Origin: Candidatus Anoxychlamydiales bacterium
GTDB taxonomy: Bacteria; Chlamydiota; Chlamydiia; Chlamydiales; SM23-39
DNA length: 62,133 bases
Assembly: GCA_011064875.1 (NCBI GenBank)
Contig: JAAKFV010000001.1
Location: forward strand, 1-62,133
Reading direction: 5' to 3'
Shown one piece after another: positions 19,808-22,390 of this stretch (within the stretch, counting starts at the first letter, position 1; each line of letters opens with the position of its first letter). The position numbers were made by a program, and so were the translations under genes. The notes beneath the pieces are model-generated. The model did not search any database. It worked only from the letters and a program-made list of their open reading frames with translations, and was not told where the DNA came from.

Positions 19808-20533
19808 ATGGCAACCTTACCAGTTGGAGATAGATCTAATTATACTACTGTTTTTGAAAGACAAAGTATTGATGACTTTATAAGACAAGCTAATAAAATT
19901 GCAAAGTGTAATAAAAAGTTAATATGGGAAAAAAAGTCATTAGAGCCAGTTGTTGATAAAAGAAAATTTAATCGTATTAAATATATTACTGATAGTGATG
20001 AATCTTCTAAAGTGGCTATGATCTGGGCGCAAGTTTATACAGATAAAATAATTCAAAAAAGTGAACATTTAAGTTTATCTCCTACAGAAATATCTCTTTT
20101 TAAAAATGTTCGAGAAACTTTCCAATCAATTCTATCTCCGGCAAGTAAAAATGATGCAATGAAAAATTATAAAGAAGCAGGTAATGCTTTTGATTCCTTA
20201 TTATATAAAATACAAGAACAAATGCCAGGAGAGCAACTCAGAATTTGGAATAAAAATGCAGCAGATAAAGCGAAAATAAGAGAAATGATGCAAAGAGAAA
20301 AAAGATCTTCGCCTGCGGTTGGAATGGATGGAGAAAAACATGTCGAGCGTGTAGAGGATGTCAGCGGCGATGAAGAGATCAGCGAGAGAGAGAGCGACGA
20401 AGTAAAACCAGAATTTCAAGCTAGTAAATTAAAGTTATCTCCAAATAAATGCTCAAAATTGACTAAGGTTATTTGTTCAGTTAGCGTTGTGGTTGCGGCA
20501 ATTTTGATGATGCTGTATAAATACAACGAATAG
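19808..20533 (+). CDS. Uncharacterised family protein, paralogue 1 (conserved N-terminal ~150 aa; acidic linker; C-terminal tail-anchor helix)
   Basis: AAGGAG RBS. Shares four colinear blocks with the next two genes. The C-terminus KVICSVSVVVAAILMMLYKYNE is a single terminal hydrophobic helix. Confidence 0.65.
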   Translation: MATLPVGDRSNYTTVFERQSIDDFIRQANKIAKCNKKLIWEKKSLEPVVDKRKFNRIKYITDSDESSKVAMIWAQVYTDKIIQKSEHLSLSPTEISLFKNVRETFQSILSPASKNDAMKNYKEAGNAFDSLLYKIQEQMPGEQLRIWNKNAADKAKIREMMQREKRSSPAVGMDGEKHVERVEDVSGDEEISERESDEVKPEFQASKLKLSPNKCSKLTKVICSVSVVVAAILMMLYKYNE

Positions 20534-20749
20534 AACTGAAAAATAAGTTTTTATAAAGTTATTATTTTAATATCCATATAATGATTATTTTAATTAATTA
20601 CGTTTATTCAGATGAATTGAGTGCAATTAAAGGCATAAGCTATTTATTTTAATCGACTTATATCTGTCTTCCTAGATGTTTTTTCTGTTTTCTATTAAAT
20701 TTATATTTTCATATATAGTATAAAAACTAGTGAGTTTTAATATCATTAT

Positions 20750-20758
20750 TGATATAAT
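20750..20758 (+). promoter_or_regulatory. Extended -10 element (TGaTATAAT) inside a conserved upstream block of paralogue 2
   Basis: tgatataat lies 56 nt upstream of ATG 20815, in the block taaaaactagtgagttttaatatcattattgatataatga, which is homologous to 19711-19750. Confidence 0.5.
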
Positions 20759-20814
20759 GAAAGCATCATTAATGTTTAAAAGATAATTTAAAAAAATAAT
20801 AATAAGGAAAAATC

Positions 20815-21471
20815 ATGTTAAAGACAGAATATAATGAGAAGATGCCATATATAAATTCTAAAGAGATAGAATTTAGAAGTGTATTAGATAAAAAAAGCTT
20901 TGAATCTTTAAAAAGGCAAGCTGAAGTAATAGCAACTCATAAAGGTAAGACTGCAACTCATAAAGGTAAGAATGGGTTGAGTTGGACAAAAGATTTAGAT
21001 CCAAAAGTGACAAAAGTTTTTCAAGCGGTTCCTGACGCTTTTTCTTCTAAAGATTTGTTAAAGAGTAATGAAGGTTCTTTGAGCGCTTCTTTTATAGCTA
21101 AAAATTGGACTGAAACTTTAAGAGGTAAAATTGAAAAAGAAGGAATTCAATTAAAGGAAGAAGAGATAGTGCTTTTTAAAAAGGTTTGGGATGTTTTTCA
21201 GACTTTACTTTACTATCATAATAGCAAATATAAGGAAATGGTTCTCAACAAAATTAATACGAATTGTGTAGCTTTAAGAAACTATGAAGCTGCAGCTAAA
21301 AATTTGTTTGAATTATGCGAAATTCAGAGAAGTCGTATTACAAGCGCTCAAAACTCACCAGATCAAGTTAGGAAAGTGGAAGAGGAGACCCCTAGTGCAG
21401 CTATTCAAGAGTTTTTAGTCGAAAGGTATGGAGATGATCAGTCTTTTAAGAGATATGGTAAAACAAAATAA
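20815..21471 (+). CDS. Uncharacterised family protein, paralogue 2
   Basis: Same block order as 19808..20533. Contains an in-frame 21-bp tandem duplication (ATHKGKT/ATHKGKN). Confidence 0.65.
   Translation: MLKTEYNEKMPYINSKEIEFRSVLDKKSFESLKRQAEVIATHKGKTATHKGKNGLSWTKDLDPKVTKVFQAVPDAFSSKDLLKSNEGSLSASFIAKNWTETLRGKIEKEGIQLKEEEIVLFKKVWDVFQTLLYYHNSKYKEMVLNKINTNCVALRNYEAAAKNLFELCEIQRSRITSAQNSPDQVRKVEEETPSAAIQEFLVERYGDDQSFKRYGKTK
20932..20973 (+). repeat. Perfect-but-one 21-bp in-frame tandem duplication (2 copies)
   Basis: gcaactcataaaggtaagact (20932-20952) is followed directly by gcaactcataaaggtaagaat (20953-20973). Confidence 0.9.
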
Positions 21472-21559
21472 AGATATATAAAAATTTATTGTTCATAAAT
21501 CAATAAAAATTTTCTAAATAAAATTAGTTTAATAAATAAAAATAAAAGAGGATAAAAAA

Positions 21560-22390
21560 ATGGCAGTATTAGGTGTTCCACAAATAGATTTAAAAAAAAG
21601 AACATATGCAGAATTTGTTGAGGATGCTCAAGAAATTTCAAGAGTTCGGGTAACTACCGACTTTTTAACATGGGGACGAAAACCAATGGTTGTTACTATT
21701 GCAGAGTTTAAAGAAAGAGAAGAAGGGTATTTGAGCTCTTGTTTCATTCAAAAAAAGGAAGAATATTCTTACATATCCCTAGAATGGGTTAGTTCATTAG
21801 TTAATAGAGTTAAAACTTTAGATAAAATATCTCAAAAAGATTTAGAGCTTTTTGATAAAGTGAGACAAGCTTTTGAGCTATTAACTTCATACTATCATTC
21901 TAGATTATCAGAAAGGTATTTAACTGTATATAGTAAGATATTTAAAGAAGGTTATCTGAATTACACAGAAGCTGCTGAAATAATGGGAGATATAGTAAAA
22001 CCGAAAGAAGATCCAATTCAAGTTGATCGAAAATCTAAACTAGAAAATTGCGGACAAGATGATATTGATGTACTGTTGTGGCTTTATAAAGAAGGTAACA
22101 TATCTAAAGATGAATTTTATAGAAAGATGGAGGCATTAGAAAAACAGAAAAATGGAGAAGGAAAAATTCATTCAGCACCTTCGGCGAGAATGAATTTTAA
22201 AAGAGAAGCTGATAGCGACTCTGATAACGAAGAATATCTTTCCCCAAAAGTAGGTTTAAAGGGTGAAAAAGCTTATCCAAGACCAAAAGGTCCAAAAAGC
22301 GATGCAGCAGCTGAAGTTGATTCATTAACGGCTAGTTTTCAAGGCCCTTTGGAGACAAAGAACTACGGTTCCATTTGCAGCTTTGCGTAG
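21560..22390 (+). CDS. Uncharacterised family protein, paralogue 3 (long acidic / Pro-Lys-rich tail)
   Basis: GAGG RBS. Shares the conserved blocks (RTYAEFVEDAQEISR, FLTWGRKP, DLELFDKVRQAFELLT, NYTEAAEIM). It has a different upstream region from copies 1 and 2. Confidence 0.65.
   Translation: MAVLGVPQIDLKKRTYAEFVEDAQEISRVRVTTDFLTWGRKPMVVTIAEFKEREEGYLSSCFIQKKEEYSYISLEWVSSLVNRVKTLDKISQKDLELFDKVRQAFELLTSYYHSRLSERYLTVYSKIFKEGYLNYTEAAEIMGDIVKPKEDPIQVDRKSKLENCGQDDIDVLLWLYKEGNISKDEFYRKMEALEKQKNGEGKIHSAPSARMNFKREADSDSDNEEYLSPKVGLKGEKAYPRPKGPKSDAAAEVDSLTASFQGPLETKNYGSICSFA

Follow-up and report, generated by a model that had tools for sequence, protein, structure and literature searches.

The inclusion membrane (Inc) proteins are chlamydia-specific and fast-evolving, are often tandemly duplicated, carry hydrophobic segments and no Sec signal, and insert into the host-derived membrane with their soluble domains directed toward the host cytosol. 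Their hallmark is a bilobed hydrophobic domain of about 40–60 residues, usually located near the N-terminus, in which two close transmembrane domains (TMDs) are joined by a short loop. Another set of clustered paralogues, the DUF582 family of Chlamydia (CT619, CT620, CT621, CT711, and CT712), has no known biochemical function, and its members have been reported as type III secretion (T3S) substrates. The translocated effectors of Salmonella pathogenicity island 2 (SPI-2) reportedly have in common an N-terminal translocation domain of about 140 aa with the motif WEK(I/M)xxFF. Here, these groups were compared with the products of three tandem genes (copies 1, 2, and 3) found in a 62,133-nt stretch of DNA from a Candidatus Anoxychlamydiales bacterium (contig JAAKFV010000001.1), the whole of which is called the window below.

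The comparison showed both likenesses and differences. As with the Inc proteins, the family is chlamydial, fast-evolving, arranged in tandem and devoid of a Sec signal, and one of its three types (type 1) has a hydrophobic segment; however, this segment is a single TMD of about 17–20 residues at the extreme C-terminus, present in type 1 only, while types 2 and 3 have none. Hydropathy scans detected no bilobed hydrophobic domain, and because it is absent the family does not belong to the Inc proteins. The Salmonella SPI-2 group resembles the present one in having a conserved N-terminal module of about 140 residues in paralogues with unrelated C-terminal functional parts. On the other hand, there is no sequence relationship between the two, the Salmonella motif is absent here, with only type 1 containing the tripeptide WEK, and the module described here is predicted to be a compact folded helical domain, the secretion of which is only proposed. 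The DUF582 proteins are likewise chlamydia-restricted clustered paralogues with one conserved domain and variable remainders, but they carry the conserved domain at the C-terminus and the variable part at the N-terminus, the reverse of the order seen here, and the present family has no Pfam DUF582 match and is confined to Anoxychlamydiales and close relatives. Type 1 also shares a helical head, a linker, and a single TMD in the last ~25 residues with the tail-anchored bacterial inner-membrane proteins ElaB/YqjD/YgaM (DUF883), from which the family differs by its paralogues lacking an anchor, its extreme rate of evolution, and its restriction to a single lineage. Despite the C-terminal TMD of type 1, membership in DUF883 was rejected, as no match was found at E<=1. 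Judged by analogy, the architecture most resembles that of effector groups with a shared N-terminal module and exchanged C-terminal parts.

The three genes belong to a lineage-specific, rapidly diversifying modular protein family, which occupies one hypervariable chromosomal slot of Anoxychlamydiales. We tentatively propose, on circumstantial grounds and with somewhat less than even confidence, that its members are exported and serve as adaptors inside a host or other partner cell. This explanation is ranked first because of the lineage restriction, the plasticity of the slot, the age of the types and their tails, the constraint on the anchor, the fast rates, and the lack of a Sec signal.

The shared domain, its tails and its distribution

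The three open reading frames (ORFs) are located on the + strand at positions 19808–20533, 20815–21471, and 21560–22390, and encode proteins of 241, 218, and 276 aa, as had been reported in a reading made from the sequence alone (below, the sequence-only reading). Its assignment of the DNA to a chlamydial genome was borne out by the match of the window, which has a GC content of ~28.6 %, to the metagenome-assembled genome (MAG) KR126chlam4 of Candidatus Anoxychlamydiales; copy 2 is identical to KR126chlam4_00018. An all-versus-all BLASTP comparison gave significant scores for two of the three pairs, with E=6e-6 over 115 residues for copies 1 and 2, and E=7e-5 for copies 2 and 3. The N-domains of copies 1 and 3 alone gave only E=0.12, and for this reason their relationship is counted as transitive and as supported by the family profile. 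The four colinear blocks aligned by eye in the sequence-only reading were all recovered in MAFFT alignments, and in six sequences from two genomes the residues W40, K43, P47, S67, W73, L97, F98, V101, F105, N120, Y121, and A124 (copy-1 numbering) were invariant. Paralogous members are only ~16–30 % identical, yet invariant core residues are kept in colinear order across types. Hence, the BLASTP pairs and the family profile identify the three genes as true paralogues of an unrecognised N-terminal domain of ~140–170 aa, each with a tail specific to its type.

The shared domain matched no known family. No family above threshold was found in Pfam or NCBIfam, none was matched in PADLOC or PHROG, and a search of PDB sequences with the family profile also gave no match. 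A structure predicted by AlphaFold2 from a three-sequence alignment had a predicted local distance difference test (pLDDT) score of 44 and was discarded, while the 17-sequence family alignment, modelled on copy 3, gave pLDDT >90 over residues ~10–150. The modelled N-domain consists of a helix (16–26), a beta-hairpin (34–46) carrying the invariant W...P, and four further helices (47–64, 68–86, 92–117, and 125–146); it is preceded by a short flexible N-terminus and followed by a helical hairpin (160–199, pLDDT 84–89), beyond which the model is disordered. Foldseek found no significant match to this confident model: against the PDB the best E was 0.3, with Dps-type bundles reaching a TM-score of <=0.37 at a root-mean-square deviation of ~16 A and none exceeding 0.5, and against the viral structures of BFVD the best E was 7.6e-3, which is not significant. 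The giant-virus helical proteins behind the latter value were set aside as generic bundles. A Dps/ferritin-like four-helix bundle was also rejected, given the non-significant scores and the lack of conserved metal ligands (His/Asp/Glu). In 17–18 sequences the invariant or nearly invariant residues are W, P, S, W, F, N, Y, and A, without any conserved His, Asp, or Glu, and nearly all of them occupy hydrophobic or aromatic core positions. Because this is the signature of a hydrophobic core without a catalytic-type constellation, the head is probably a binding or scaffold module, not an enzyme. The family is thus an undescribed domain with a confidently predicted fold, for which the PDB holds no structural neighbor to the model.

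In copy 1 the N-domain (19808–20224) is followed by an acidic Ser/Glu linker (20225–20467), a TM anchor (~20468–20518), and the residues KYNE before the stop codon. The hydropathy scan showed one strong segment at residues ~221–237, with a Kyte-Doolittle (KD) 19-mer mean of 2.37, ending 4 residues before the end of the protein, in agreement with the tail-anchor topology suggested earlier. The segment, ~17–20 residues long, is conserved in type 1 (KD of 2.37 in copy 1, 1.77 in the K940chlam5 protein, and 2.21 in protein P0009), and its flanks KCSKLTK...YKYN are kept in all type-1 members. The scan of copies 2 and 3 found no hydrophobic segment (maximum 0.44 and 0.41), and among the other scored members no comparably strong one was present, types 2 and 3 staying at <=1.2 and P0015 having a weak C-terminal one (1.16). 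No N-terminal hydrophobic stretch was seen in any of the three proteins, in line with the absence of a signal peptide noted in the sequence-only reading. In copy 2 the N-domain (20815–21339) is followed by a short tail with the type-2 motif I.EFL.ERYG. This tail had been described as basic, but it is net neutral, only its last 7 residues being basic. Copy 3 has its N-domain at 21560–22018, a helical hairpin at 22037–22156, and a disordered, acidic and aromatic tail with the motifs HSAPSARMNF, DSDSDNEEYLSP, and SLTASFQG. The higher GC content noted for the copy-3 tail is real, but not special to it, as all three tails are at 0.37–0.40 versus 0.28–0.31 in the N-domains.

Each tail is conserved among its own orthologues, as seen in the type-1 and type-3 alignments and in the type-2 motif I.E.L..RY, and copy 3 matches its K940chlam5 orthologue at 2e-44 in tblastn with the tail included. 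Between types the tails are unrelated, as had been claimed: a possible residual homology of type-1 and type-3 tails, hinted at by a BLASTP E=0.015, was ruled out by a profile–profile comparison (hhalign E=0.41, not significant). The hairpin of the type-3 tail is SHOCT-like at a sub-threshold level only. The tail of the K940chlam5 orthologue scored 17.1 bits with PF09851 (cut-off 27) and 18.7 bits with PF08044 (cut-off 27.6), and the fragment from copy 3 of the window had no SHOCT-type Pfam match, so that both SHOCT and the SHOCT-like DUF1707 were rejected.

Several sequence variants were observed in copies 2 and 3. In copy 2, within the loop that precedes the beta-hairpin, 21 bp are perfectly duplicated in tandem and in frame (20932–20971, ATHKGKT/ATHKGK); the KR126chlam5 orthologue lacks this duplication. 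P0006, a variant of the copy-2 protein, is encoded at 784–1467 of a 1,571-bp contig (L006, JGI 3300005253), which corresponds to window positions 20815–21471. The contig is 100 % identical to the window for 590 bp on one side and 366 bp on the other side of a central stretch, in which 86 bp are swapped for 113 bp. The 113-bp insert encodes, in frame, an HNH-endonuclease-like motif, RERDGYICQMPGCN...HHIDYN, and this swap may be genuine or a chimera created during assembly. The C-terminus of copy 3 is visibly unstable. The comparison of 21560–22540 with assemblies derived from LCGC14 (L003, 10001–10980) showed indels only and no substitutions, namely +C at gene nucleotide 740, -A at 798, and -GA at 896–897, and the +C truncates the product to 251 aa (P0001). 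In the +1 frame relative to copy 3, positions 22359–22451 (+) hold a decayed remnant of a longer type-3 C-terminus with a stop codon inside; it was found by tblastn with the tail of the K940chlam5 orthologue (RTTVPFAALRRTSRVTLDLSDFQ*SEPMSRA versus RRATPLGDLRRARPLVDDLPQSEPMPRA, E=0.059) and is colinear with the main match.

The distribution of the family was determined with profile searches. Word-indexed searches of 5.8e9 proteins found only six members, each of which came from Anoxychlamydiales or marine sediment. An exhaustive HMMER search of 1.84e9 cluster representatives, in which the query was built from four sequences, gave 15 matches at E<=1e-3, of which about 14 are real; a match to P0017, a 2,084-aa bird protein, is a spurious repeat artefact. 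The named matches came only from the Anoxychlamydiales MAGs K1060chlam1, K1060chlam3, KR126chlam4, KR126chlam5, KR126chlam6, and K940chlam5, and the remaining real ones from sediment contigs. A metagenome scan with the type-3 alignment added nothing beyond the same sediment datasets. Two further tandem members, missed by HMMER, came to light through synteny in the more distant MAG L014, which is labelled Parachlamydiales, and were supported by hhalign with a probability of 96 % (E=1.9e-9 and 9.2e-9). The family is thus strictly restricted to this lineage (Anoxychlamydiales MAGs, sediment contigs, and L014), and neither non-significant alignments, nor a housekeeping domain, nor a wide spread in free-living bacteria, any of which would have contradicted the sequence-only reading, was observed.

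A neighbor-joining tree of the N-domains resolved three orthologous types. In this analysis w1, w2, and w3 denote copies 1, 2, and 3, k1 the type-1 protein of K940chlam5, and numbers with L and P loci and proteins, respectively. Type 1 comprises w1, k1, c1, P0009, and P0016, each with the C-terminal TMD; its sister group is type 2, and type 3 is the sole type in single-copy genomes. The pair in L014 represents an independent duplication in the same tree. These data show that the three types are old and arose by duplication of an ancestral type-3-like gene.

Divergence, the chromosomal slot and upstream DNA

To compare the family with its surroundings, identities and dN/dS values (NG86 method) were determined for orthologues. 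The flanking proteins are 85–97 % identical to their K940chlam5 and KR126chlam5 counterparts, while family members are 37–70 % identical to those of K940chlam5 and 40–52 % to those of KR126chlam5. The dN/dS values were 0.03–0.20 for the flanks (dS ~0.26–0.67) and 0.50–0.96 for the family, and in the comparison of copy 1 with k1 they reached 1.56 in the N-domain and 1.38 in the linker, with 0.19 in the TM segment, all omega values being subject to the caveat that dS may be underestimated at a third-position GC of only 0.13. The pooled Nd:Sd of copy 1 differs from that of the flanks (p=5e-20). Purifying selection acts on the TM segment, where pN/pS is 0.28 (p=0.005). The non-synonymous rates of the family are 5–15 times those of the neighbors. 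Hence, by identity, dN/dS, and Nd:Sd alike, this lineage-specific family evolves far faster than the genes around it.

A dN/dS near 1 in copy 1 would also be expected of ORFans that decay or drift neutrally, serve no selected function, and resemble one another simply through recent duplication. The frameshift variants of copy 3 between strains (P0001), the decayed C-terminal remnant after its stop codon, and a copy number that varies down to zero are in line with this explanation. However, every genome read has intact ORFs, the three types represent old groups of orthologues maintained across genomes, and the invariant core residues remain colinear despite ~16–30 % identity between paralogous members. 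The confident AlphaFold fold, the purifying selection on the TM segment, and the strong conservation of promoter and leader also argue for function, and we regard drift as highly improbable.

The silent sites of copy 1 showed a different pattern. The silent divergence of its N-domain is 0.068 versus 0.329 in the flanks (p=9e-8), and over window positions 19717–20224 compared with the K940chlam5 locus (L001), which cover the promoter core and the N-domain, it is ~0.07–0.09, that is, 4–5-fold below that of the flanking genes (0.33). The TM-coding end of copy 1 is as diverged at silent sites as the flanks. The low silent divergence suggests that lineages have recently exchanged the promoter and N-domain by recombination, leaving a tract over this part of copy 1; alternatively, silent sites may be constrained or biased, given the low third-position GC.

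The position of the genes was compared between loci. Every member with a readable context lies between a divergent gene encoding a 128-aa protein (19112–19498, -) on the left, next to copy 1, and a convergent enolase gene (22538–23827, -; Pfam Enolase_N/Enolase_C on orthologues) on the right, next to copy 3, or beside whichever of the two its contig retains. This slot holds 0–3 copies in variable order. There are three copies in the window, K940chlam5 (L001), and KR126chlam5 (L009), one in K1060chlam1 (L007) and KR126chlam6 (L011), and at least two in L014. L022 has another order, with a type-3-like followed by a type-1-like gene, and in L021 a type-2-like gene immediately adjoins enolase. Immediately upstream of the latter member, L021 contains at 1–798 (-) an IS605 OrfB/TnpB-like fragment, a sign that mobile elements have been active in the slot. 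In a chlamydial genome of 2.1 Mb lacking the family, enolase and the homologue of the 128-aa gene (131 aa) are directly adjacent, and because the two boundary genes adjoin there the slot is considered empty. In another genome the slot is occupied by GT90 and methyltransferase genes.

Such a slot could also house an array shaped by inter-microbial or anti-phage conflict, for example orphan immunity proteins against the toxins of competitors, or a defence or anti-defence module, in which case the conflict itself would drive diversification. Immunity-gene arrays typically consist of tandem, small, helical, signal-less, and fast-diverging paralogues that vary in copy number, the IS605-like insertion and the shuffled order would fit, and a possibly host-free life in sediment would expose the cells to competitors. 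On the other hand, no toxin, Rhs, contact-dependent inhibition (CDI), or type VI secretion gene adjoins the family in any locus read, the flanks being syntenic housekeeping genes, and there is no PADLOC or PHROG match. Moreover, tails of 45–160 residues and a tail anchor are foreign to known immunity families, and the genes occupy one ancestral slot, not mobile islands. Membership in a known defence or immunity family was rejected on the PADLOC result and the absence of an adjacent toxin or defence gene, and a conflict array of any kind appears improbable.

The DNA upstream of the genes is better conserved than the proteins. Over ~95 bp, the regions upstream of types 1 and 2 share 76–91 % identity among paralogues and genomes, while the proteins are only ~30 % identical, so that the locus has an unusual pattern of nearly constant regulatory DNA and strongly diverged coding sequences. 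The consensus TAGTGAGTTTTAAT.T.ATTATTG.TATAAT is followed by an A/U-rich leader and AAGGAG. For copy 1 the promoter element TAGTGAGTTTTAATGTAATTATTGCTATAAT is located at 19717–19747 (+), with an extended -10 TGcTATAAT, the -10 hexamer at 19742–19747, and a predicted transcription start at ~19754, and is followed by the leader at 19748–19807 (+) with the Shine-Dalgarno sequence AAGGAG at 19797–19802. The copy-2 element TAGTGAGTTTTAATATCATTATTGATATAAT lies at 20728–20758 (+), as determined from the upstream alignment and a motif count in the window, in which the element has 2 matches versus 0.00 expected by chance. An additional distal box, CATAAGCTGTTTATT, was seen at 19645–19659 (+) upstream of copy 1 when four upstream regions from two genomes were aligned, and its copy-2 counterpart is at ~20636–20650. 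The short leader of copy 3 (21472–21559, +) is conserved in the type-3 gene of K940chlam5 and does not contain the promoter element of types 1 and 2. This element is invariant across the paralogues and K940chlam5 and is also present upstream of KR126chlam5 copy 1. The sequence reads as an extended -10 promoter (TGnTATAAT) with an A/U-rich leader, by which types 1 and 2 would each be driven. It is not the promoter of a wider regulon, as 185,579 species genomes hold only the two K940chlam5 sites, and a structured 5′ untranslated region or known RNA was also rejected, the leader having no Rfam match and no predicted consensus structure. Upstream of the single-copy gene of K1060chlam1, at a distance of ~65 bp, the promoter region contains a perfect repeat (AAACAAT)x7 (L007, 7887–7935). 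Tandem repeats of this heptanucleotide type in promoter regions can give phase-variable expression by strand slippage.

The tight conservation of the promoter suggests regulated endogenous expression, and would therefore also suit a role inside the bacterium, with type 1 tethered to the chlamydial inner membrane by its anchor, its head in the cytoplasm, types 2 and 3 soluble, and the family perhaps serving to scaffold or regulate some process peculiar to the lineage, for instance in development, stress response, or envelope biology. In agreement with this, hydropathy revealed no secretion signal of any kind, the very hydrophobic TMD with its positively charged flank KCSKLTK fits the positive-inside rule for the bacterium's own membrane, the locus is set among housekeeping genes (AhpC, enolase, RsgA, and RsbU) and not near any secretion genes, and the lineage is not known to have a host. 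However, cytoplasmic housekeeping or regulatory proteins rarely evolve 5–15 times faster at non-synonymous sites than all their neighbors, and a variation of 0–3 copies between close relatives is rare for them. Long disordered acidic or aromatic tails are also unusual in bacterial scaffolds, and known bacterial tail-anchored families such as DUF883/ElaB are not matched. These features make an intrabacterial role rather unlikely, although a good deal less so than drift or conflict.

Proposed export and the host question

If the proteins are exported adaptors, as we tentatively favor, they would leave the cell without a Sec signal, most plausibly by the chlamydial non-flagellar type III secretion system (NF-T3SS), and would act in a partner or host cell. 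The shared head would then provide a common binding or export function, while the tails would set location and partners, and the anchor of type 1 would enter a target membrane after translation, leaving the head on the cytosolic side. Antagonistic co-evolution with the target could explain the high amino-acid substitution rate. The NF-T3SS is the obvious export route because marine-sediment chlamydiae encode it, together with predicted effectors (bioRxiv 10.1101/577767), and tail-anchored secreted effectors using GET/EMC-type insertion in the host are an established concept (PMC12981334). The T3S-effector predictions in the supplementary tables of the MAG paper are listed per genome, not per locus tag.

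The sequence-only reading had already regarded the genes as a candidate effector family, which the present data leave plausible on circumstantial evidence. The paralogy, the orphan domain, the lineage restriction, the fast rate, and the tail anchor agree with it, while other observations weigh against export. In addition to the lack of an Inc-type domain, the 62-kb window contains no T3SS apparatus genes, and no dedicated chaperone is adjacent, the 128-aa neighbor being an enzyme-like core protein of the whole phylum. T3S effectors commonly, though not always, have a dedicated class I chaperone gene next to them. In the AlphaFold model a lower-confidence N-terminus of only ~10–15 residues precedes the folded domain, and because this domain starts by residue ~12–16 only a short leader is left for a secretion signal. 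The TMD of type 1 could, because it is very hydrophobic (2.37), enter the bacterium's own inner membrane. With a pN/pS of 0.94, copy 1 is not significantly above 1 (p=0.5–0.7), and since dS may in addition be underestimated, relaxed constraint could account for the rates instead of positive selection. Finally, no eukaryotic host was detected for these MAGs, and the authors who described them suspect that the lifestyle is not obligately intracellular (PMC7449678), which makes the earlier premise of an intracellular genome uncertain.

A more specific version of the export proposal, which we consider the least probable of all the explanations weighed here, is that the slot is a contingency-type effector array of chlamydiae without a detectable eukaryotic host, injected into a partner in anoxic sediment. 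The partner could be an undetected anaerobic protist or a non-eukaryote, for example a co-occurring Asgard archaeon, in which the tail-anchored member would use a GET/EMC-like route, and diversifying selection, promoter-proximal repeats, and the shuffling of copy number and order would adjust how the two interact. In that case, the family would offer a molecular means of identifying the partner of Anoxychlamydiales. These anaerobic chlamydiae are discussed in relation to eukaryogenesis, and whether they have hosts is in question (PMC7449678). A lineage-private family evolving like a host-interaction factor would be a concrete, testable candidate for this question, to which its fast non-synonymous rates, modular tails and anchor, copy-number variation in a single slot, and promoter conserved above the proteins are all relevant. 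Should the proteins prove to be ordinary cytoplasmic ones, the finding would shrink to one more orphan family in an uncultured lineage.

Neighboring genes of the window

The 128-aa protein at the left boundary of the slot is identical to KR126chlam4_00016, and its gene flanks the family in L001, L003, L007, L009, L011, L014, and L022. It has 707 homologues at >= ~50 % identity across Chlamydiales/Parachlamydiales, and many of its polar residues do not vary; the invariant positions include E10, R59, E63, D69, C90, D120, and D123, with H110 and C107 nearly invariant. No match was found in Pfam or the PDB. It looks like an uncharacterised enzyme or metal-binding protein, and from its size and its position beside AhpC the gene is probably the orthologue of CT602. 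The latter is a 130-aa Chlamydiales signature protein (PMC1403754), which appears on a short list of 21 small acidic candidate T3S chaperones (PMC3576375). A role as a dedicated T3S chaperone of the family was ruled out, as this is a phylum-wide core gene, and its conservation pattern and its presence in a genome free of the family argue against a dedicated partner.

Other genes of the window were also noted. An AAA_14/DUF4143 ATPase gene at 27442–28773 (-) is present also in L003, L007, and L009, and absent at the same position in L001 (K940chlam5) and L011, and thus represents a presence/absence polymorphism inside otherwise conserved synteny. The orphan ORF at 29041–29439 (+), which encodes 132 aa and has no Pfam match, is another fast-evolving small gene, as its product is 55 % identical to the K940chlam5 counterpart versus 86–92 % for its neighbors. 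A run of small genes at 33584–35694 (-) with weak pseudopilin-like signals (T2SSJ, N_methyl) may be a minor-pilin cluster of a type II secretion system or pilus. Two paralogous genes for outer-membrane porins of the Legionella_OMP type are located at 48040–49089 (-) and 57319–58365 (+), and between them, at 50201–54667, lie four consecutive ORFs (142, 573, 316, and 162 aa) with no Pfam family at E<=1e-3. The 582-aa protein encoded at 42204–43952 (+) contains a DXD glycosyltransferase region (Gly_transf_sug, TcdA_TcdB, and GT88 matches) and a weak ankyrin-repeat match, a combination of glycosyltransferase and ankyrin that is effector-like, as in clostridial and Legionella glucosyltransferases.

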